From Methanobacteriota archaeon (GTDB taxonomy: Archaea; Thermoplasmatota; Thermoplasmata; RBG-16-68-12), in NCBI GenBank assembly GCA_005878985.1, contig VBMA01000075.1, positions 12,120-76,119 of the forward strand: a stretch of DNA of 64,000 nt, given 5' to 3'. The position numbers and the translations under genes are program-made. Shown piece by piece: positions 9,519 to 64,000 of the stretch (positions within the stretch are counted from its first letter, which is position 1; each line of letters starts with the position of its first letter). The notes beneath the pieces were generated by a model, which saw nothing but the letters and a program-made list of their open reading frames with translations, was not told where the DNA came from and did no database searches.

Positions 9519-10118
9519 ATGCCCGCCCGCGATCGAAAAGCCTCCACGATCAGCCCTCAGATGGACCTCGCGGGAATGAACTCGGACGAGGCGCGCGAGC
9601 TCCTCGCCGCCGCCCTGACGCCGGATCCGCAATCCGGGATCCTCCGACTCTCGGATCAGCCATGCCTCATTCTTCGAGCCGAGGTCATCGTCAGCATCCA
9701 AAAACAGCTAGAACAGACGGTGGGCGGGTCCGCGAAAGGAATCCTGTATCTGTCCGGGGAGCGGAGTTCGGATGCCGGCCTGAAGTTCCTCGGAGCCTTG
9801 ACGAATGGGATTTCACTGCCCTTGACGCTGGAGGGAGCGAAGCGGATCATCGACGCGTCCGCGCTCACCGGTTGGGGGCGGACCGAAATCGTCCACTTCG
9901 AGCCGGACCGAGGTCGCTTCATGGTCGCGAGACACAACAGCCCGATCGCCCAGGCGTACGGGCCCTCCAAGAAACCCGTGTGCCACTTCCTCGCCGGATG
10001 GATGGCGGGGATCGGCCGTCTGCTCGTGGGCAAGGAGCTCCTCTGCGAGGAGATCTCGTGCATGGCACAAGGGCACGATCGGTGCGAGTTCGAGCTGCAA
10101 CCGATGCCGATGGCCTGA
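9519..10118 (+). CDS. V4R-domain protein (putative hydrocarbon/ligand-binding)
   Basis: C-terminal CHFLAGWMAGIG...EEISCMAQGHDRCEF is the V4R Cys pattern (COG1719-like). Confidence 0.6.
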   Translation: MPARDRKASTISPQMDLAGMNSDEARELLAAALTPDPQSGILRLSDQPCLILRAEVIVSIQKQLEQTVGGSAKGILYLSGERSSDAGLKFLGALTNGISLPLTLEGAKRIIDASALTGWGRTEIVHFEPDRGRFMVARHNSPIAQAYGPSKKPVCHFLAGWMAGIGRLLVGKELLCEEISCMAQGHDRCEFELQPMPMA

Positions 10119-10173
10119 GTCGGCGGAAAGCCTTTTACCCGTCTCGCTTTTCCACAGCGGGGCCCGGGAGAAC

Positions 10174-11466
10174 GTGGAGCGTTTCGATGCTATCGTGGTC
10201 GGGGCCGGGCCCGCGGGCTCCTCCGCGGCGTTGACGCTCGCCCGCAAGGGCTTCTCGACCCTTCTGGTGGAACGGGGACGGGCTCCTGGCGTGAAGGGGA
10301 TGTTTGGCGGGCGTATCTATGCCTGGCCTCTCGCCGATCTGGTTCCGGAGTGGGCGAAGGACTGCCCGATCGAGCGGCTCGTGATTCGCGAGAATCTCGC
10401 CTTCCTCACCGAGGACGCGTCCCTCACCGTCTCGTTTGATTCCCCGAAGCTCGCCCAGGGCCGCGGGACGAGCTTCACCGCGGTCCGCGCGAAGTTCGAC
10501 GCATGGCTGGCGAAAAAAGCCCAGGACGCCGGCGCGATGCTCGTCACCGGGATCCGCGTGGACGACCTCTGGCGGGAGGGCGGTCGCGTGCGAGGCGTTT
10601 CCGTCGCCCCGAACGATCATGTGGCATCCGATCTGGTCGTCATCGCGGAGGGTGCGGCGTCGACGTTGGTCCGAGAGGCGGGCTTGAAGGCAGACCTGGA
10701 GCCGCGAGAAGTGTCCGTCGGGATCAAGGAGACCGTCGAACTTCCAGCGGAGACGATCCAAGAACGATTCGGTCTGGGCGAGAAAGAAGGGGCCGCCTAC
10801 GTGTACGCGGGTCATGCGTCGATGGGCCTCCGTGGAGGCGGATTCCTGTACACGAACAAGGCATCCGTATCCATCGGACTCGTCGTCTCATCGGAGGACC
10901 TGTCTCGGAAGAAGGTCGAGGTCCAGGACCTCCAGACGAAGTTCCGAATGCATCCTGCGGTCCAACGTCTCCTTCGCGGCGGGAAGGTCGTCGAGTACAG
11001 TGCCCATCTCGTCCCGGAACTCGGGGCCGGGATGATGCCCCAGCTATCGACCGACGGCGTGCTCGTGGTGGGGGACGCCGCGGGCTTCCTCATCAACAAC
11101 GGCTACACATTCCGCGGGGTGGACCTCGCGATCGCGTCCGGCATCGCCGCGGGGGAAGCCGCCGAGGCCGCGCGGTCGGCCGGCGGCATGTCGAAGGTGA
11201 ATCTCGCGGTGTATGAGAAATTCTTGCGGGCTCGAAACGTGCTCACGGACCTCGAGCGGTTCCGACGAGCGCCCTTGTACATGAAGAACGAACGGCTCTT
11301 CGACGTCTATCCGCGGATGCTCATGGAGATCGCCGAGCGCATGTACACCGTGGACGGCAGCGGCAAGGAGCGCCTGTTCGACGTCGTCCTCGACGAGGCG
11401 TCCGCCGCCAAGGTGCCGAAGCTCAAGATGCTCCTCGATCTCCTTCACGGAGCCGGATCGATGTGA
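10174..11466 (+). CDS. fixC: FAD-dependent oxidoreductase FixC (ETF:quinone oxidoreductase-like)
   Basis: N-terminal FAD fold IVVGAGPAGSSAA; FixC-like over its length. Confidence 0.8.
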   Translation: MERFDAIVVGAGPAGSSAALTLARKGFSTLLVERGRAPGVKGMFGGRIYAWPLADLVPEWAKDCPIERLVIRENLAFLTEDASLTVSFDSPKLAQGRGTSFTAVRAKFDAWLAKKAQDAGAMLVTGIRVDDLWREGGRVRGVSVAPNDHVASDLVVIAEGAASTLVREAGLKADLEPREVSVGIKETVELPAETIQERFGLGEKEGAAYVYAGHASMGLRGGGFLYTNKASVSIGLVVSSEDLSRKKVEVQDLQTKFRMHPAVQRLLRGGKVVEYSAHLVPELGAGMMPQLSTDGVLVVGDAAGFLINNGYTFRGVDLAIASGIAAGEAAEAARSAGGMSKVNLAVYEKFLRARNVLTDLERFRRAPLYMKNERLFDVYPRMLMEIAERMYTVDGSGKERLFDVVLDEASAAKVPKLKMLLDLLHGAGSM

Positions 11467-29952: not shown

Positions 29953-30806
29953 GCACATACTGGCGGACCTTCAAGACGGCCGCCTGGCTCGGCTGGCAAA
30001 TGGACTCGAACTGGACGGAGCCCTGGCTGTTCGTCATCTACTCGATCGTCAAGCCCGTGGCGGGAGCGTTCATCCTCATCTTCATGTACGTCGTGATCTG
30101 GTCGATCAACGGGATTCCGGACCCTCACTCCTTCGCCTTCCTCTACATCGGGAACGCCTTCTTCATCTTCGTCGGCTCGACCCTCCTCGGGACGTTCCAG
30201 GTCATCCAGTCCGACCGGGAGTGGTACCAGACGATCCGATACGTGTACATCTCCCCGATCTCCTACTACGTGTACATCCTCGGGCGTGCGTTCTCGAAGA
30301 TCGTCGTATCGGTCTTCGCCGTCCTGATCACGTTGGCCTTCGGCGTATTCCTCCTCGGTTCCTACGGGGTCCAGATGCAGCTCTCTCTCGACCGACTGCC
30401 TCTGTTCTTCGTCAGCCTCGCCCTCGGCCTGTTTGTCCTCTTGGCAATCGGCATCACCCTCGGTGCCGCGACGTTCCTGATGGCCCGACATTCGCAGACC
30501 CTCGCGGAGGCGGTCCCGGGGGTGTTCTACGTCTTCTGCGGCGTACTATTCCCGCTCACGATTCTCCCGTCGTGGGGGCAGGCGATCGGAGAAGCAATTC
30601 CACTCACGTATTGGTTCGAGATCACCCGGCGTATCCTCTTGCCGTTCCAACTCAATACGGGCCTCGCCGGGTTCGACGACCTCGAGATTCTCGCCTTCCT
30701 CCTGGTGTCCACCGTCATTTTCTTCGGTCTCAGCATCGGCGTATTCAAGTTGGGCGAGTACCTGGCCCGCAGGGCCGGCAAAATCGACATGACGACCTCC
30801 TATTGA
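29949..30806 (+). CDS. ABC-2 type exporter permease
   Basis: MSTYWRTFKTAAWLGW...; six TM segments. ATG 29949 is in frame in track ORF 29331..30806. Confidence 0.7.
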   Translation: MSTYWRTFKTAAWLGWQMDSNWTEPWLFVIYSIVKPVAGAFILIFMYVVIWSINGIPDPHSFAFLYIGNAFFIFVGSTLLGTFQVIQSDREWYQTIRYVYISPISYYVYILGRAFSKIVVSVFAVLITLAFGVFLLGSYGVQMQLSLDRLPLFFVSLALGLFVLLAIGITLGAATFLMARHSQTLAEAVPGVFYVFCGVLFPLTILPSWGQAIGEAIPLTYWFEITRRILLPFQLNTGLAGFDDLEILAFLLVSTVIFFGLSIGVFKLGEYLARRAGKIDMTTSY

Positions 30807-31150
30807 GGTCGGGGTCGCGACGCTCTACGCGCCGACTGCTCCCGACGGTACGGATATCGTTGGACGGTGCCGCACGTAGTGCACGTCACGACGACCCGGC
30901 CCCGTCCCACGCGGACCCGAGCGCTCACGGATGGCAGAAGAAACGCGAGGCACTTCTTGCAGAACGACCGCTTGAACGGCGCGGGCACGCGGACGTTATA
31001 ACGCATCCCGATCCGACGCGCGAGCTCCACGTACCGTCGCGCCCGGCCAGCATGGCGCTGGAGCGCTTCGCCTTCGGCCAAGCGGAAGAGCGTCGTCATC
31101 CGCTCCAGGGCGATCCGCCGCTCCATGCCGCGGTGGCGTCGCTTCGCCAT
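30800..31150 (-). CDS. rnp4: ribonuclease P protein component 4 (Rpp21/Rpr2 family)
   Basis: RERIALERMTTLFRLAE...FCKKCLAFLLPSVSARVRV..VVVTCTTCGTVQRYPY is the Rpp21 zinc ribbon. Confidence 0.7.
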   Translation of the reverse strand: MAKRRHRGMERRIALERMTTLFRLAEGEALQRHAGRARRYVELARRIGMRYNVRVPAPFKRSFCKKCLAFLLPSVSARVRVGRGRVVVTCTTCGTVQRYPYRREQSARRASRPRPQ

Positions 31151-31236
31151 CGGGTTGCGCAGCCGGTCCAAAGGATAAAACCTTCCCGGGCGACGAAGCT
31201 TTAACTAGAGTCGCTCGGTTATGCGCGGGGATTCTC

Positions 31237-41555: not shown

Positions 41556-42548
41556 TCACCGCGTCGCACCCTTTTCCCGTTTTTCATTCCTCTTATTCCT
41601 TTTCATCTCGCGGCCAATTCGATCGGCGAGCCTCAGCGGTTCCGGATACCCACGAAGAGTGGAACCTCGGACGACTTCGAGTGCGCGCCCGAGCGAGATG
41701 CGGTGACCGATGGAGACGTAGATGGGACGTTCGCGGCCCGGCGGAGTCCATGCATATCCGCGGACCTGACCGCGGAACTCGACCGGGGACGTTCTCGAGG
41801 GCGATCGGGTTCCCGGTCTCACCCGACCGACGAGCGGATGCTTCGCCACACCGATCGTCGGGATATTGAGTCGGACGCCGACATAACACGCGACGCCGAA
41901 GAGCGCCGGATGCAGACGGCCGTGGCCGTCGATCAAGAGGACGTCCGGTGGCCGCTTCAGGCGACGAATCGCCGCTTCAATCCCGGGAAATTCGCGATAC
42001 GCCAAATACGTCGGGATGTAGGGGAACTCAGCCTGACGTTTCACGGCGGTGATTTCGGTGAGCGCGAGGTCCTTCGCGTCGAGGGAGACCGCAACGATGC
42101 GCATCGCGTTTCCGTCGTAGCCGGCATCAACGCCGGCAACACGTTCGACCTGCAGTCCGCCGTCTCGTTCGATCACTCGGTCGCCCAACTTCCATTGTTC
42201 CTCGCGGAGTGTCGTGAGGAATCCGGTGGGCTCCAAGACATTCAAGATTCGATCGGCGGAGACGCGGCCTCGGAACAGGCGGGTGCCCTCCCGCGAGAAT
42301 TCCCGCGATGCGGACATGAGGACCGGTCGGCCGTCGGCGCGGACGACCCGGTGTCCTCCCAGCGTCTCCGGACGGGTCGCGATCCACGTGGCCACGGCTC
42401 GGGACGCCCGGATATCGCCCAATGCCCGGGCGATTGCTCCACACGTCGTGACCCGGCCGGGCCCGACTTGATCGAGGCACCGCTGCAGAGCCTTCGAGAA
42501 GTCGAGGTCCACGAACGCGCATCGGCTCGGACCGCAATACCCTTTCAC
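41556..42548 (-). CDS. nfi: alkyltransferase-like (ATL/AGT DNA-binding) domain fused to endonuclease V
   Basis: The C-terminal two thirds are EndoV (VAGVDAGYDG...EFPYIPTYLAYRE...LLIDGHGRLHP). The N-terminal ~90 aa resemble the MGMT/Atl helix-turn-helix, but the active-site PCHRV is replaced by GGHRVV. Confidence 0.7.
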   Translation of the reverse strand: MKGYCGPSRCAFVDLDFSKALQRCLDQVGPGRVTTCGAIARALGDIRASRAVATWIATRPETLGGHRVVRADGRPVLMSASREFSREGTRLFRGRVSADRILNVLEPTGFLTTLREEQWKLGDRVIERDGGLQVERVAGVDAGYDGNAMRIVAVSLDAKDLALTEITAVKRQAEFPYIPTYLAYREFPGIEAAIRRLKRPPDVLLIDGHGRLHPALFGVACYVGVRLNIPTIGVAKHPLVGRVRPGTRSPSRTSPVEFRGQVRGYAWTPPGRERPIYVSIGHRISLGRALEVVRGSTLRGYPEPLRLADRIGREMKRNKRNEKREKGATR

Positions 42549-44916: not shown

Positions 44917-44994
44917 GCGGTCGCGCGATAGGTTTATCCGACACGTTCCAATGCGGACGGACGACCGCCGGCGCGCCGTGGCTCGATGTGCTGT

Positions 44995-45130
44995 AGCGGG
45001 GTGGGGTAGCCAGGATATCCCGTCGGGCTCATACCCCGGGACTCCCAGGTCCCCGGTGAGACACCCGGAGATCGATGGTTCAAAAGGGCCGTGAGGACGA
45101 CCTCAGGCCCGGAAAGTCCATCCCCCGCTA
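44995..45130 (+). tRNA. initiator-type tRNA-Met (CAU) carrying two putative introns (~29 nt at 37/38 and ~32 nt within the T-loop)
   Basis: Manual fold: acceptor AGCGGGG/CCCCGCU (A1:U72), anticodon stem UCGGG/CCCGG with three G:C pairs, loop CUCAUA[intron]A, variable loop AGAUC, T-stem GAUGG/CCAUC, T-loop UUCAAA[intron]U. Confidence 0.65.
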
Positions 45131-48448: not shown

Positions 48449-48480
48449 CCTCCTCCTCTTTTTACCCGAACCTTTTTCCA
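48449..48480 (+). terminator. T-rich tract after ftsZ (CTCCTCTTTTTACCCGAACCTTTTTCC)
   Basis: Oligo-T runs typical of archaeal termination, directly after the ftsZ stop. Confidence 0.3.
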
Positions 48481-48501
48481 TTTCTCTCCCATCGCGCGAG
48501 C

Positions 48502-48831
48502 GTGAGCACGCGACGCCCGCGGTATCGCTACATCGCGTTCCGGGTCGACGGTCCTCGGGCCTTCCGACGCGAGGAAGTGCTGGAAGCTCTGCGGACAATG
48601 CCGCTTCGACTGTGGCTCGTGGACTTCGCACGCTCATCGGGCCTCGTCCGGACAACCCATCTCGAAAAGGACGCCGCGATTCACGCGCTGAATGCAATCG
48701 GAACGCTCGGTGGAGAATCGGTCCGCGTGACGACGGTCGGGACCTCCGGGACGATTCGCGCGGCGACTCGCAAGTATCTGAGCCGAACGGACAGCGTGCG
48801 CCGACAGTCCGAAAAGAACCCTTATAAGTGA
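48502..48831 (+). CDS. rnp2: ribonuclease P protein component 2 (Pop5 family)
   Basis: RYIAFRVDG...LWLVDFARSSGLVRTTH...VTTVGTSGTIRAA is Pop5-like. GTG start inside the long spurious track ORF 47509..48831. The position before psmA matches the known archaeal superoperon. Confidence 0.65.
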   Translation: MSTRRPRYRYIAFRVDGPRAFRREEVLEALRTMPLRLWLVDFARSSGLVRTTHLEKDAAIHALNAIGTLGGESVRVTTVGTSGTIRAATRKYLSRTDSVRRQSEKNPYK

Positions 48832-48861: not shown

Positions 48862-49587
48862 ATGCAGCCGGGCCAGATGGCGTACGACCGCGCGATTACG
48901 GTCTTCAGCCCCGACGGCCGCCTGTTCCAGGTGGAATACGCTCGCGTGGCGGTCACGCGGGGAAACACCACCGTGGGCCTGAAGTTCAAGAACGGCATCG
49001 TGCTGATGGCCGACAAAAAGATCGGATCGCGGCTGGTCGAAACGTCATCGATCGAGAAGATCTTTCAGATTGACGAGCACGTCGGGGCGGCGACCTCCGG
49101 CCTCGTCGCCGATGCGCGGGTCCTCGTGGACTATGCCCGGCTCGTCGCGCAGATCAACAAGGTCACGTACAGCGAGAAGATCGGCGTCGACCTCCTCGTG
49201 AAGCGGATTTGCGATTACAAGCAGAACTACACCCAATACGGCGGCGTCCGTCCGTTCGGGACCGCGCTCCTCGTGGCGGGCGTGGACGACCTTGGGACCC
49301 ATCTGTTCGAGACGGACCCGAGCGGCGCCCTCGTGTCGTACAAGGCCGGCAGCATCGGACAGGGCCGCCAGGCGGTCATGGAACTCCTCGAGGAGAAGTA
49401 CAAGGACAACATGGCTCAGGACGACGCGATGATTCTCGGTCTTCAGGGCCTCCAGAAGGCCTCCGAGGGGGAGAAGCTCGATGCCCGCGCGATCGAGATC
49501 GGCTTGATCGTCGAAGGCGAGAAGTTCCGTCGGCTCTCGGAGTCCGAGGTCGGCCAGTATCTCACTCGCATCCCGACAGCGTCGTAG
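48862..49587 (+). CDS. psmA: proteasome subunit alpha
   Basis: MQPGQMAYDRAITVFSPDGRLFQVEYA is the proteasome-alpha N-terminus. Confidence 0.9.
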   Translation: MQPGQMAYDRAITVFSPDGRLFQVEYARVAVTRGNTTVGLKFKNGIVLMADKKIGSRLVETSSIEKIFQIDEHVGAATSGLVADARVLVDYARLVAQINKVTYSEKIGVDLLVKRICDYKQNYTQYGGVRPFGTALLVAGVDDLGTHLFETDPSGALVSYKAGSIGQGRQAVMELLEEKYKDNMAQDDAMILGLQGLQKASEGEKLDARAIEIGLIVEGEKFRRLSESEVGQYLTRIPTAS

Positions 49588-49599
49588 GCGAGCGAGGTC

Positions 49600-50340
49600 A
49601 TGCCTAAAGAGCTCCGATCGGACCGTCGCGACGATATCTTCAAGGAATACGTAATCGCCCGCGTCGAGAAGGCCGGCGAGAAGTTCGAAGTCCTCGTGAA
49701 GCCGGATGCGGTCCAGCGGATCCGGGACGGCAAAGAGGTCGACCTCCTTCGGGAACTCGCCATCGACGAGATTTTCAAGGATGCCCACAAAGGCTCGAAG
49801 GCGTCCGAAGAGAAGATGATGGATTTCTTCGGGACGACGGAGCCGCTGGCGGTCGCGAAGCAGATTGTCCAGCGCGGCGAGATTCAGCTGACGACGGAAC
49901 AACGCCGGCAGATGTTGGAGGCGAAGCGAAAGCAGATCGTGCAGTACATCGCCGCGAACGCGATCAACCCGCAGACCGGCGCGCCCCATCCGCCACAGCG
50001 GATCGAGAACGCGATGGAAGAGGCGAAAGTCCACGTCGATCCGTTCAAAAGCGTCGAGGAACAGGTCAAAGAGATCCTCGATGCGCTCCGGCCGCTCATC
50101 CCGATTCGCTTCGAGAAGGTCCGGATTGCGGTGAAGCTGAGCGCCGAGGACAGCGCGAAGGCGTACGGCGACCTCAAGTCGTTCGGAACGATCCTGAAAG
50201 AAGAATGGTCTCCGACGGGGGCTTGGCTCGGCGTCGTTGAGATGCCGGCCGGCTTGCAGACCGAGTTCCTCGAGCGTCTCAACGCGAAAACGAAGGGAAA
50301 CGTGGAGACCCGGATTCTGAAAGCCGACCAGCGGATTTGA
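49600..50340 (+). CDS. ribosome maturation protein SDO1/SBDS
   Basis: Near-canonical archaeal SBDS sequence (EVLVKPD...[40 protein letters not shown]). Confidence 0.85.
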
Positions 50341-50411
50341 GGGCGCCGCAAAGACCGGAAGCCTCAAGTAGCCGCCTCGGTTTCGACGCGGTGCGTGAGA
50401 GAGAGACACCT

Positions 50412-51110
50412 ATGCAGAGCAGTGGGGCGCTCCGCCCGATCGTCATTCCGGGCGAAGCCGTCGGCGGCCCCGGGCTGAAACCCGGGCCGGGCACATACAG
50501 CGAAGGCGGACGGGTTTTCGCGGCGCAATTGGGCATTCGGGACGAGCATGAGGGCCTCGTCAGCGTGATCCCGCTCAACGGGCGGTACATCCCGCAGCGG
50601 GGCGACGCCGTCATCGGCGAGGTGGTCGACCAAGGCCCCTCCCATTGGCTCGTCGACATCCATTCACCCTATCCCGCTCCCCTCCACGCGACGGAATCCC
50701 CCTGGCGCGTCGAGTTCGGCGACACCGCACGCTACCTGAAGGTCGGCGACGTGATCATGTGTCACGTCCTGAGCGTCGACGAGATCAAACGCGTCCAATT
50801 GACGATGCAGGAGCGCGAGGCGCGACGCCTGAACGGCGGCATGGTGATCGAGATCTCGCCGACGAAGGTGCCCCGGGTGATCGGCAAGCAGGGGAGCATG
50901 GTGTCCCTGATCATGGACCTGACCGGCTGCCGGATTTACGTCGGGCAGAACGGTCGGATCTGGCTGGATGGGGATGACCGCAGCGCCGCGGTGGCCGCGA
51001 TGGCGATCCGCCTGATCGACGAGCGGGCCCAGGCCGTGGGCCTCACGGAAGCCGTGCGCGAACGGATCGAGCGGGAGCAACCACGAGGACGAGGGCCGAG
51101 GCCCTCCTGA
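50412..51110 (+). CDS. rrp4: exosome complex RNA-binding protein Rrp4 (S1 + KH)
   Basis: S1 and KH domain features (VIGKQGSMVSLI). Confidence 0.8.
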   Translation: MQSSGALRPIVIPGEAVGGPGLKPGPGTYSEGGRVFAAQLGIRDEHEGLVSVIPLNGRYIPQRGDAVIGEVVDQGPSHWLVDIHSPYPAPLHATESPWRVEFGDTARYLKVGDVIMCHVLSVDEIKRVQLTMQEREARRLNGGMVIEISPTKVPRVIGKQGSMVSLIMDLTGCRIYVGQNGRIWLDGDDRSAAVAAMAIRLIDERAQAVGLTEAVRERIEREQPRGRGPRPS

Positions 51111-51122
51111 GGAAGGTTTTCC

Positions 51123-51959
51123 ATGGAAGACATCGAGCACATCGAGAAAGGGATGAAACTGATCAAATCCGACGGACGCCGCCTAGATGGCCGGAGGTTC
51201 GATGAGTTGCGACCGATCCGGGTCGAGGCGGGAGTCCTGCGCCGGGCGGACGGATCCGCGTACATCGAGTGGGGCGGGAACAAGGTCCTCGCGGCCGTCT
51301 ACGGCCCGCGCGAGGCGCACCCGAGGCACCTCCAGGATCCCGCCCGGGCCCTCGTCCAGTGCCGTTACAACATGGCTCCGTTCAGCGTCTCGGACCGGAA
51401 GCGGCCCGGACCCGATCGACGGTCCGTGGAGATCTCGAAGGTGATTTCCGAGGCGTTCGCCTCGGTCGTTTTCGTCGAGCAGTTCCCGCGCACGTCGGTC
51501 GACATCTTCATCGAGGTCCTCCAGGCGGACGCGGGCACGCGGTGCGCCGGGCTGACGGCGGCTAGCGTGGCCCTCGCCGATGCCGGCGTCCCGATGCGGG
51601 ACCTCGTCACCTCGTGCGCGTCGGGCAAGATCGACGGGGTCGTGTGCCTCGACCTCAACAAAGACGAGGACAACTTCGGAGACGCGGACTGCCCCATGGC
51701 GATCGTCCCGCGGACCGGCGATGTCGTCCTCCTGCAGATGGACGGCCACCTCACCTACGACGAGTTTCAGAAAGCGATGGGCCTGTCGATCGATGCCACG
51801 AAACGGATCTACGAGCTGCAGCGCGATGCGCTCCGACGCCGGTATTCGGTGACCCTCGAAGACATCCTGAAAGAGCCGCCTCCCGCGGCCCCGGCACCGG
51901 TCGAGTCGGACGAGCCGCCGATGCCACCCGAGGAAGACTTTGGCCCGGAGGGGATCTGA
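51123..51959 (+). CDS. rrp41: exosome complex exonuclease Rrp41 (RNase PH-like)
   Basis: [14 protein letters not shown]-terminus; RNase PH fold. Confidence 0.85.
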
Positions 51960-52738
51960 TGAGCGAGGAGATCGTCTCGGAGCTGATGCGCGCTCACGTG
52001 TATCGCCTCGCGTCGTCCGGGCAGCGAGTCGACGGCCGCAGCCTCGATCAGCCCCGCCCGGTCAAGGTCGACCGGTCGTTCGTCAAGACCGCGGAAGGGA
52101 GCGCCCGCGTGAAGCTGGGGAACACGGACGTTCTCATCGGCATCAAGATGACCGTGGGCGAGCCGTATCCCGACACCCCGAACACCGGCGTGCTGTCGAC
52201 GAGCGTCGAGTTGATCCCGATGGCCAGTCCGACGTTCGAGGCCGGCCCGCCGCGGCCCGATGCCATCGAGCTTGCGCGCGTCGTCGACCGAGGGATCCGC
52301 GAGTCGAAGATGGTGAATATGGAGAAGCTCTGCATCACGCCGAAAGAAAAGGTGTGGATCCTGTTCATCGACATCCATGTCCTCGATTTCGACGGGAATC
52401 TGTTCGACGCGTGCTCCTACGGCGCGGTCGCGGCCCTGTCCTCGACGATCGCTCCGGCGAAGGCCCAAGGCCTCGGCGACGACTTCCCGCTCCCGGTCGA
52501 GCACTGGCCCGTCAGCGTGACGACCGCGAAGATCAAGGACCTCTTGCTCGTCGATCCGAGCCTCGACGAGGAGCGCATGGCCGATGCGCGGCTCACCGTG
52601 ACGACGGACGAGAACGGCGACATCCGCGCGATGCAAAAAGGCTTAAGTGGAAGCTTTACTTACGAAGAAGTGAAGCGGATTATCGAGACGGCCCAGCGCG
52701 TCGGCCGCGACATCCGTCCGCTCCTTCAATCTTCCTGA
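51959..52738 (+). CDS. rrp42: exosome complex component Rrp42
   Basis: RNase PH-like second subunit; ATG overlaps the rrp41 stop. Confidence 0.85.
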   Translation: MSEEIVSELMRAHVYRLASSGQRVDGRSLDQPRPVKVDRSFVKTAEGSARVKLGNTDVLIGIKMTVGEPYPDTPNTGVLSTSVELIPMASPTFEAGPPRPDAIELARVVDRGIRESKMVNMEKLCITPKEKVWILFIDIHVLDFDGNLFDACSYGAVAALSSTIAPAKAQGLGDDFPLPVEHWPVSVTTAKIKDLLLVDPSLDEERMADARLTVTTDENGDIRAMQKGLSGSFTYEEVKRIIETAQRVGRDIRPLLQSS

Positions 52739-52746
52739 GGTCCTCC

Positions 52747-53034
52747 ATGGCCCGTCGCACGAGAAAGGCAGGCATCGTCGGCCGTTTCGGCCCCCGCTAC
52801 GGCGTACGCATTCGCCGCCGGGTGCAAGAGATCGAGGAGGGCCTGAAAGGGCGGCACACGTGTCCGCGATGCGCCGCGATCTCCGTCCGCCGGAGATCGA
52901 GCGGGGTCTGGGCGTGCCGCCGATGCGGCTACGTCTTCGCGGGCGGGGCCTACCGGCCGATCGTGACGACCTCATTCAAGCGAGAGGTCACGGAGACCAC
53001 GCCGAAGCCCGAAGCGAAGGCGGAGGAGGCCTGA
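52747..53034 (+). CDS. rpl37ae: 50S ribosomal protein L37Ae
   Basis: MARRTRKAGIVGRFGPRYGVRIRRRV...CPRC...CRRCG zinc ribbon. Confidence 0.85.
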   Translation: MARRTRKAGIVGRFGPRYGVRIRRRVQEIEEGLKGRHTCPRCAAISVRRRSSGVWACRRCGYVFAGGAYRPIVTTSFKREVTETTPKPEAKAEEA

Positions 53035-57280: not shown

Positions 57281-57387
57281 GCCGGGGTCGCCTAGCCCGG
57301 TAGGGCGCGGCGCTGGAATCGGCGGCAGGCCGTCGCCAGCCACGCCGTGGTTGAAAGACCTCGGGAGTTCAAATCTCCCCCCCGGCG
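57281..57387 (+). tRNA. tRNA-Ser (GGA) with a ~23-nt intron at the canonical 37/38 position
   Basis: Manual fold: acceptor GCCGGGG/CCCCGGC+G, D-arm, anticodon stem CGGCG/CGCCG with loop CUGGAA[intron]A, long variable arm UGGUUGAAAGACCUC, and T-arm GGGAG-UUCAAAU-CUCCC. Confidence 0.7.
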
Positions 57388-62673: not shown

Positions 62674-64000
62674 TTAGTGGACCCACGTTCCCTGTTTCAG
62701 TGCCTTGTCGACTCTCAGTGGGTTCCCGCCCACCGCCAGCTGGATTGGCGTTTCGGCGCCTCCGCGACCGAGGAACAGGACGCTGCCCCCGGGTCCGACC
62801 TGGAGTTGGTACTTCTGGAACTCGGAGAAGGGCAGGACCGGCGCCCCTTTTTCGCCCAGGACCTGCGACCCCACCGGGGATTGGTCGGGCGGCAGCACGA
62901 GGCCAACGTCCGCCTTGTCTTCACCGGCCAGGAGCATTCCGCGGCTCTCGATTCCGCGGAGCTTGGCGGGCTCCAAGTTTACGAGGACGACAATTTTCCG
63001 ACCACGAAGTTGGTCCTTCGAGTAGTTCTTCCGGATTCCCGCAACGATCTGTCGTGTCTCTCCCCCGAGGTCTACGTTGAGGACGTACAGATTGTCGGCG
63101 TTCGGGTGTTCTTGTACATCCACAATTTGCGCGACGCGAAGATCGAGGCGGTCCGCGGGGCTCTCCTTCGCCTCGCTGAGGTCAATCTTTGCGAACAGCG
63201 GCTTGCCGACCCGGAGCGTCTGGCCCGCGGGGACGTCCTCGAGGGCCTGATCCCAGCGTTCGGCATGGACGTCCGTGTCGTATCCGAGCGCCCGCCAGAG
63301 CCGCGTCGAGCTGAACGGAAGGAACGGAGCCATGAGGATGGCCAGGGAGCGGCTCACCCGCAAGGCGACGTGGAGCACGGTCCCGCAGGCCTCGCGGTCT
63401 TTCTTGATGAGATCCCAGGGCGCCTTCGCATCGAAATATTGGTTGCCCAACCGGGCGAGCTGGATCGTGTCTTTCATCCCGTCCTTCAGGTGGACGTACT
63501 CGAGGTTCTGGCCGACCTTCTTCCATTGTTGCTCGACCGCGCGGATCATCCGCTTGTCGGCGGCATCGAGGAAGCCCGCGGGCGGGACGGCATGGTTGAA
63601 ATTCTTGTCGGCGAAGGTCAGGGCGCGGTGCACGAAATTTCCGTACACCGCGAGGAGCTCGCTGTTGTTCCGCTGCGCGAAGTCCTCCCACTCGAACTCC
63701 GTGTCCTTGGTCTCCGGCATCGTGGCGACCCCGTAGTACCGGAGCTGGTCCGGATCGAACCGCTCGAGGAGGTCGGAGAGCCACACGCCCTTCCCGCGGC
63801 CCGCGCTCATCTTCTCGCCGGAGAAGTTCAGGTATTGTGTGGCCGGCACGTCGTAGGGCAGGTCGAGCTTCGCATCGTAGCCGAGCAGGATCGCCGGCCA
63901 GATGATCGTGTGGAACACGATGTTGTCCTTCCCGATGAAATAGTAGTGGCGGGCCTTCGGATCGAACCAGAAGTCCTTCCATCCGTCGGGCGTGTTGCGG
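62674..64000 (-). CDS. metG: methionyl-tRNA synthetase, C-terminal part (gene continues past the window end)
   Basis: Anticodon-binding region plus a C-terminal EMAP/Trbp111-like tRNA-binding domain (KIVVLVNLEPAKLRGIESRGMLLA). Confidence 0.8.
   Translation of the reverse strand, partial: RNTPDGWKDFWFDPKARHYYFIGKDNIVFHTIIWPAILLGYDAKLDLPYDVPATQYLNFSGEKMSAGRGKGVWLSDLLERFDPDQLRYYGVATMPETKDTEFEWEDFAQRNNSELLAVYGNFVHRALTFADKNFNHAVPPAGFLDAADKRMIRAVEQQWKKVGQNLEYVHLKDGMKDTIQLARLGNQYFDAKAPWDLIKKDREACGTVLHVALRVSRSLAILMAPFLPFSSTRLWRALGYDTDVHAERWDQALEDVPAGQTLRVGKPLFAKIDLSEAKESPADRLDLRVAQIVDVQEHPNADNLYVLNVDLGGETRQIVAGIRKNYSKDQLRGRKIVVLVNLEPAKLRGIESRGMLLAGEDKADVGLVLPPDQSPVGSQVLGEKGAPVLPFSEFQKYQLQVGPGGSVLFLGRGGAETPIQLAVGGNPLRVDKALKQGTWVH

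Follow-up and report, generated by a model that had tools for sequence, protein, structure and literature searches.

The window, by which we mean the whole 64-kb stretch of DNA analysed, carries a gene for an initiator tRNA-Met, tRNA-iMet(CAU), in which three colinear exons are separated by two introns (Table 1). Exons and introns were delimited by hand and by script. The T-arm that houses the second intron reads GAUGGUUCAAA, intron 2, then UCCAUC. After excision of both inserts 75 nt remained, which ARAGORN called as tRNA-Met(CAT) with a normal cloverleaf. This spliced product has the features that define an archaeal initiator tRNA-Met: a CAU anticodon, A1:U72, three G:C pairs at G29-31:C39-41 and a complete cloverleaf, with the anticodon loop CUCAUAA and the T-loop UUCAAAU. 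Against uninterrupted iMet genes taken from five further MAGs of archaea, it is identical at 70/75 positions to those of Methanosarcinales and Methanomicrobiales and at 65-68/75 to those of Haloarculaceae, Archaeoglobales and Poseidoniales. The initiator identity proposed in the preliminary description, on the same hallmarks, is thus borne out, and the two introns that it placed at 37/38 (about 29 nt) and in the T-loop (about 32 nt) were exact in length and position. CCA is not encoded, the bases after A73 being UCG, and must therefore be added post-transcriptionally.

Table 1. Positions in the window of the tRNA-iMet gene, its splicing motifs and surrounding features.
Feature	Position	Strand	Sequence or remarks
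Promoter-like box (BRE/TATA-like)	44926-44937	+	CGATAGGTTTAT; 58-69 nt before the start of the mature tRNA
tRNA-iMet(CAU) gene	44995-45130	+	136 nt
Exon 1	44995-45033	+	AGCGGGGUGGGGUAGCCAGGAUAUCCCGUCGGGCUCAUA; tRNA positions 1-37; acceptor 5' strand AGCGGGG, D-arm, anticodon-stem 5' strand UCGGG, ending in CUCAUA
Intron 1	45034-45062	+	CCCCGGGACUCCCAGGUCCCCGGUGAGAC; 29 nt; canonical position 37/38
Intron 1, central helix	45028-45031 with 45057-45060	+	C32U33C34A35/UGAG
Intron 1, bulges	45032-45034 and 45061-45063	+	UA|C and AC|A
Intron 1, inner helix h'	45035-45056	+	CC.GGGAC/GUCCC.GG
Exon 2	45063-45084	+	ACCCGGAGAUCGAUGGUUCAAA; tRNA positions 38-59; A38, CCCGG, variable loop AGAUC, T-stem GAUGG, UUCAAA
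Intron 2	45085-45116	+	AGGGCCGUGAGGACGACCUCAGGCCCGGAAAG; 32 nt; non-canonical position 59/60, inside the T-loop
Intron 2, central helix	45079-45082 with 45111-45114	+	U54U55C56(A57)/(G)GAA; base opposite A57 at 45111
Intron 2, bulges	45083-45085 and 45115-45117	+	AA|A and AG|U
Intron 2, inner helix h' (hairpin)	45086-45110	+	GGGCC-G-UGAGG-ACGA-CCUCA-GGCCC
Intron 2, hairpin apex	45094-45104	+	(G)AGG...CCU(C)
Exon 3	45117-45130	+	UCCAUCCCCCGCUA; tRNA positions 60-73; U60, T-stem CCAUC, acceptor 3' strand CCCCGCU, discriminator A73
tRNA-Ser(GGA) gene	57281-57387	+	Class II; 23-nt intron at 37/38
Endonuclease V and DNA_binding_1 ORF	41556-42548	-	Alkyltransferase-like (ATL-EndoV)
RNA-processing genes	30800-31171; 48466-48831; 48862-53034; 62674-63918	-; +; +; -	

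That the interrupted gene is real, and not a chance pattern, is confirmed, because the exon pattern with its two gaps matched once in the window and in none of 100 shuffles, and because it recurs in 45 distinct variants from independent assemblies. A permuted or split tRNA gene was ruled out, all three exons being colinear within 136 nt, as was a self-splicing group I or group II intron, given lengths of 29 and 32 nt and no match to an Rfam intron.

Standard tools overlooked the gene. With the gene unspliced, ARAGORN reported no tRNA anywhere in the window; its intron mode (-i) missed the iMet region, and lowered thresholds produced nonsense calls only. Rfam returned no tRNA in the unspliced iMet region, either at gathering scores or at E<=10; a sub-threshold match to PyrR205 in this region (14.5 bits) was rejected. 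A tRNA-Gly(ccc) with a 434-nt intron, called by ARAGORN -i at 9991-10514, was discarded as a false positive, as it overlaps a protein-coding gene. A second hidden gene, tRNA-Ser(GGA), was missed by plain ARAGORN and Rfam and recovered by a T-arm/acceptor scan and by ARAGORN -i; its intron is canonical, with a perfect central helix CUGG/CCAG. Both tRNA genes of the window therefore contain introns.

We located the splice junctions by the BHB rule, under which two exon bases separate the 5' strand of the central helix from the intron, and two intron bases separate its 3' strand from the following exon. At intron 1, all four pairs of the central helix form, both bulges have 3 nt, the anticodon stem serves as the outer helix h, and an inner helix h' is present. 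This is the strict hBHBh' arrangement (two 3-nt bulges, a 4-bp helix, h and h'), and intron 1 is an ordinary canonical intron. It shares this structure, including a 4-bp helix that uses anticodon-loop bases, with other euryarchaeal introns at 37/38, that of the tRNA-Ser(GGA) gene among them. The repeated CCCGG would permit an alternative boundary with C38 in place of A38, which was rejected, as the BHB register sets the junction at 37/38.

Intron 2 differs from these euryarchaeal introns in its T-loop site and in one non-standard central pair. Its central helix consists of three standard pairs and an A57.G mismatch and so falls short of the strict hBHBh' definition; under the relaxed definition (at least one flanking helix, mature tRNA restored) it is a BHB motif, and both flanking helices are in fact present, the T stem as h and the intron's own hairpin as h'. 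A BHB-compatible fold at the T-loop junctions had been named beforehand as a test of the two-intron proposal, and the geometry of such a motif, both bulges included, is present there. The long hairpin predicted within the insert is likewise there. The expectation that both introns would depend on relaxed motifs needs correction: it holds, to a slight degree, for intron 2, whereas the motif of intron 1 is strict.

Relatives were sought by exact-protein look-up of the neighbouring RNase HII gene, which yielded six near-identical metagenome contigs with the gene order of the window: EndoV-ATL, amidohydrolase, RNase HII, SCP2, the tRNA, two KaiC-like genes and FtsZ. The tRNA is identical in all six except L005, where a U:A pair of the intron-2 hairpin has become C:G. 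The ATL-EndoV gene cited in the preliminary description was recognised as an ORF with endonuclease V and DNA_binding_1 domains, and the identical gene in L001 has PF04493 and PF01035 on record in Pfam. Among other neighbours are RNA-processing genes, encoding the RNase P subunits Rpr2 and Pop5 and the exosome superoperon (proteasome alpha, SBDS, Rrp4, Rrp41, L37ae), together with the C-terminal part of methionyl-tRNA synthetase.

Species-representative genomes were then scanned by pattern. The first pattern was loose and also matched numerous bacterial fMet genes that happen to be followed by CGCTA, but the scan gave at least 21 iMet genes of archaea in which UUCAAA is followed by an insertion. 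Three of them are close relatives with both introns, one labelled 'Methanobacteriota archaeon EA_12' and two 'Thermoplasmata archaeon'. The other matches listed come from MAGs labelled Thermoplasmata (L071), Methanosarcinales, Thaumarchaeota/Nitrosopumilales, Bathyarchaeia, Thor- and Promethearchaeota, Micrarchaeota and Aenigmatarchaeota. A stricter pattern applied to metagenomes gave at least 96 distinct iMet genes with a T-loop insertion; the taxonomic spread of such genes is a sample and not a census. BLASTN of the flanks showed a gene order common to the window and EA_12 at 88% nucleotide identity, and a locus between the SCP2 and KaiC-like genes that is kept down to about 69%. From this shared gene order, the host is assigned to a deep, soil-dwelling clade of Thermoplasmata, and the labels of the same-order contigs agree with the euryarchaeal host suspected earlier.

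Other intron combinations were seen within this clade. Two genes in the same gene order, about 73% identical (L153, L161), have three introns, in the D-loop, at 37/38 and at 59/60, while three from related Thermoplasmata (L071, L183, L237) have D-loop and 59/60 insertions without the 37/38 intron; the D-loop insertion, of about 30 nt, is a putative intron. A T-loop intron was present in every related gene recovered, by scans able to find only genes having it. Four metagenome genes with Bathyarchaeia-like exons (L154, L219, L239, L245) combine the T-loop intron with an apparent insertion in the acceptor-stem region, very close to the start of the gene (GGCGGGGAAAAACCGTAGCGAGAG...CTACAAGGGTGGGGTAGCC).

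The comparison with orthologous iMet genes, also envisaged in the preliminary description, came out in favour of two introns. In an alignment of 45 distinct variants of the window's own gene type (A1), only 4/75 exon columns vary, as against 18/29 in intron 1 and 26/32 in intron 2. Exon 1 is constant apart from two D-loop columns; in exon 2 a single T-stem column varies, jointly with its partner (A:U to G:C). When the cloverleaf and both BHB motifs were imposed on the 45 variants, 95% of cells were standard pairs, and compensatory changes were found at eight pairs: two in the intron-1 inner helix, five in the intron-2 hairpin and one in the T stem. None of 500 shuffles reached these pairing or covariation measures, and sliding the partners by 1-3 columns lowered pairing to 34-61%. 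The exon/intron architecture, the BHB geometry and the conservation with covariation are what the analysis itself shows.

These data bear on the possibility that the locus is a decaying pseudogene, an iMet disabled by insertions while a working initiator tRNA is encoded elsewhere in the genome. A second copy could lie beyond the visible 64 kb, and damaged copies or misassemblies do exist: in L167 (metagenome contig WNFE01002042.1) intron 1 has lost 5 nt, including the UGAG strand of the BHB 1 central helix, through damage to the allele or through faulty assembly. Decay is hard to reconcile, though, with exons that stay essentially invariant while the introns diverge, with compensatory changes in the helices, with a BHB register conserved across lineages, or with a conserved gene order and promoter-like box. 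In addition, a scan of the 64-kb window revealed no second iMet anticodon arm. We consider a pseudogene so improbable as to be nearly negligible.

A related question is whether the T-loop insert is an intron for EndA at all. The enzyme might remove only the 37/38 intron, a BHB with a 3-bp central helix being uncuttable by a euryarchaeal EndA of narrow specificity, so that the T-loop insert would be kept or removed in some other way. A 32-nt insertion in this position would destroy the conserved T-loop, which speaks against its retention. In the A1 alignment, U54 and U55 of the intron-2 central helix stand opposite A or G and C56 always opposite G, while A57 faces U in 14/45 variants, giving the full 4 bp, and G in 31/45, as in the window. 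The mismatch thus prevails among the relatives, and the alpha4 and alpha'2 enzymes have been assigned a narrow specificity (PMC3239211, PMC6379350). Against this, a single central pair deviates, both h (the T stem) and h' are present, and the variants with A57:U have the complete helix.

The register of the motif was assessed in 80 distinct genes from many lineages, requiring at least three of the four central-helix pairs. The predicted register held in 60/61 genes for intron 1 and in 77/80 for intron 2, and in far fewer when shifted. Intron 2 ends in [U/G]G[A/G][A/G]-NN, in exact BHB register, in 77/80 genes. A shift of BHB 2 by -1 still pairs in 48/80 genes but gives a 4-nt bulge, and was rejected in favour of register 0. 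These counts validate the cleavage rule on canonical introns and fix the second intron at 59/60. Removal of the 37/38 intron alone is, in our judgement, very unlikely.

The intron-2 hairpin has a conserved part of its own. Its apex (A1 columns 100-102 and 109-112) is nearly invariant in the 45 variants, whereas the lower stem shows free covariation and the loop sequence differs among them; this constancy may simply reflect shared ancestry. An extra function of the introns, as guide RNA, riboswitch-like hairpin or protection from integrating elements, would add to splicing and not exclude it. The near-invariant top of the hairpin (GAGG...CCUC) above a covarying lower stem would suit such a role, and there is a weak resemblance to Guanidine-II in Rfam (13.6 bits against a gathering score of 32). 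That match was rejected, since the ACGA loop behind it is not conserved (loops in relatives include AGGA, AACGG, CCCG and ACCGA), and no Rfam family reached its threshold. Introns of 29 and 32 nt are too short for a box C/D guide, and inspection revealed no C or D boxes; this candidate was rejected on both grounds. An additional role for the introns therefore appears unlikely.

We also considered folding energies. The MFE structure of the whole precursor (-69.3 kcal/mol) lies below the BHB structure (-59.3 kcal/mol); it retains the acceptor and T stems and the intron-2 hairpin, but joins the G-rich D region to the C-rich intron 1 and contains no central helices. RNAalifold misfolded the 5' half in the same way. 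When each arm was folded separately, each BHB fold came within 2-3 kcal/mol of the MFE of its own arm. Thermodynamics neither proves nor excludes the BHB motifs, and the case rests on geometry and comparison. In the alternative RNAalifold fold, A1 columns 17 (45011, D-loop) and 45 (45039, intron 1) are paired and change jointly from C:G to U:A in three sequences, which is probably co-inheritance within a lineage and not a real pair.

Upstream of the gene, the box CGATAGGTTTAT recurs 34-70 nt before the tRNA in same-order relatives of 69-88% nucleotide identity (L080, L109, L127, L153, L166, L172, L187, L191, L204). Its conservation and the known form of archaeal TATA boxes suggest that it is probably a BRE/TATA promoter element, and its position is consistent with an archaeal promoter followed by a short leader removed by RNase P.

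The above findings make it very probable that this is a functional iMet gene of an uncultured soil member of the Thermoplasmata, whose two independent BHB introns would be cut by EndA and whose exons would be joined by RtcB-type ligation. For cleavage, ligation and the acting enzymes, we infer the course of events from the established archaeal splicing pathway. The gene would be transcribed as a core precursor of about 136 nt with two BHB introns; EndA would cut in both 3-nt bulges of each motif, at four sites (37|i, i|38, 59|i and i|60), and an RtcB-type ligase would join the three exons. The ends would be trimmed by RNase P and RNase Z, with CCA addition afterwards. Since neither motif overlaps the other, either intron could be removed first. 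Archaeal EndAs recognise the BHB without reference to the body of the mature tRNA.

The window ORFs scanned against Pfam contained neither an EndA (tRNA_int_endo) nor an RtcB domain, and tblastn with M. jannaschii EndA (checked against PDB 1A79) gave no match in the window or in the relatives' loci examined. Two observations stand against the proposed pathway. BHB 2 is not strict hBHBh', neither in the window nor in the 31 relatives that share its mismatch; and the central helices are absent from the predicted whole-precursor MFE and RNAalifold folds. A preference for strict motifs is reported for the EndA types common in Euryarchaeota (PMC3239211, PMC6379350), and reviews attribute to this group alpha4 or alpha'2 EndA of narrow specificity, together with canonical introns that occur singly and no others (PMC4090602, PMC6379350). 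In favour of feasibility, minimal BHB substrates are cleaved by the homodimeric EndA of Ferroplasma, a member of the Thermoplasmatales (PMC8707768).

Published non-canonical sites include 59/60, known from the permuted iMet of Thermofilum pendens (PMC3218864) and from ARMAN-2 (PMC3239211). The T. pendens tRNA-iMet(CAU) is close in kind, being the same tRNA with a BHB junction at 59/60 and an intron at 37/38 (Chan et al. 2011, PMC3218864); that gene, however, is circularly permuted, its 3' half lying upstream of the 5' half, while ours is colinear, and T. pendens is a crenarchaeon with an (alpha-beta)2 EndA, while our host belongs to the Thermoplasmata. In ARMAN-2 (Ca. Micrarchaeum), pre-tRNA-Cys(GCA) and pre-tRNA-Pro(GGG) carry short T-loop BHB introns at 59/60 (Fujishima et al. 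2011, PMC3239211), and the ARMAN-2 EndA cleaves at 59/60 in vitro, the tRNA-Pro motif being strict hBHBh' (PMC3239211). These are other tRNA species, processed by a three-unit epsilon2 EndA with a specificity loop, and the tRNA-Cys motif is an hBH without h', whereas the motif described here has both h and h'.

Multi-intron tRNA genes, with as many as three BHB introns in one gene and at canonical as well as non-canonical sites, are known from Thermoproteales and Thaumarchaeota (Sugahara et al. 2008; PMC8450103), and they too are overlooked by ordinary tRNA finders (tRNAscan-SE 2.0, PMC8450103). Their hosts have an (alpha-beta)2 EndA with a Crenarchaea-specific loop, in contrast to the present host, from a group described in reviews as having single canonical introns only (PMC4090602). 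Ectopic introns and permuted junctions at 59/60 in Cyanidioschyzon merolae share the BHB-type junction and the T-loop position (PMC3728597, PMC3978253), but belong to a eukaryotic nuclear genome with another endonuclease complex. The association of such introns with Thermoproteales-type archaea, made in the preliminary description, needs widening: T-loop iMet introns are not confined to that group and occur in MAGs of many lineages, and 59/60 is a documented site (PMC3218864, PMC3239211).

Intron 2 therefore belongs to a known class, the non-canonical BHB introns, at a known position that is seldom reported from the Thermoplasmata branch, and the combination of 37/38 and 59/60 introns in iMet has its published counterpart in permuted form. 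Among the papers searched, none gave an account of such iMet introns in Thermoplasmata. New are the Thermoplasmata host, the depth of conservation within the clade, and the two- and three-intron iMet genes found there; on evidence that is still incomplete, so is the iMet 59/60 intron across many archaeal lineages, including Methanosarcinales MAGs.

The matches listed with this intron bear MAG labels of Thermoplasmata, Methanosarcinales, Thaumarchaeota, Bathyarchaeia, Asgard and DPANN. We offer, with considerable doubt, a wider reading: that the iMet 59/60 intron is a deeply conserved or repeatedly re-acquired archaeal intron, and that the presumably only initiator tRNA of this order-level soil Thermoplasmata clade needs two to three removals, in one of which a euryarchaeal-type EndA would cut a T-loop BHB whose central helix has 3 bp. 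If true, this would be an exception to the textbook rule of single canonical introns and narrow-specificity enzymes in Euryarchaeota. The recurrence of the iMet intron at the very site of the permuted junction in T. pendens is relevant to the question of ancient origin or repeated gain of such introns.

One practical consequence is that, as annotation tools overlook the iMet gene, genomes of a widespread soil Thermoplasmata clade would seem to be without an initiator tRNA. More broadly, with this gene a Thermoplasmata lineage joins the hosts of multi-intron tRNAs whose introns occupy non-canonical positions. Such introns are usually associated with (alpha-beta)2 or epsilon2 endonucleases, and the new host offers a further group in which the proposed co-evolution between EndA architecture and the position of introns can be tested directly.
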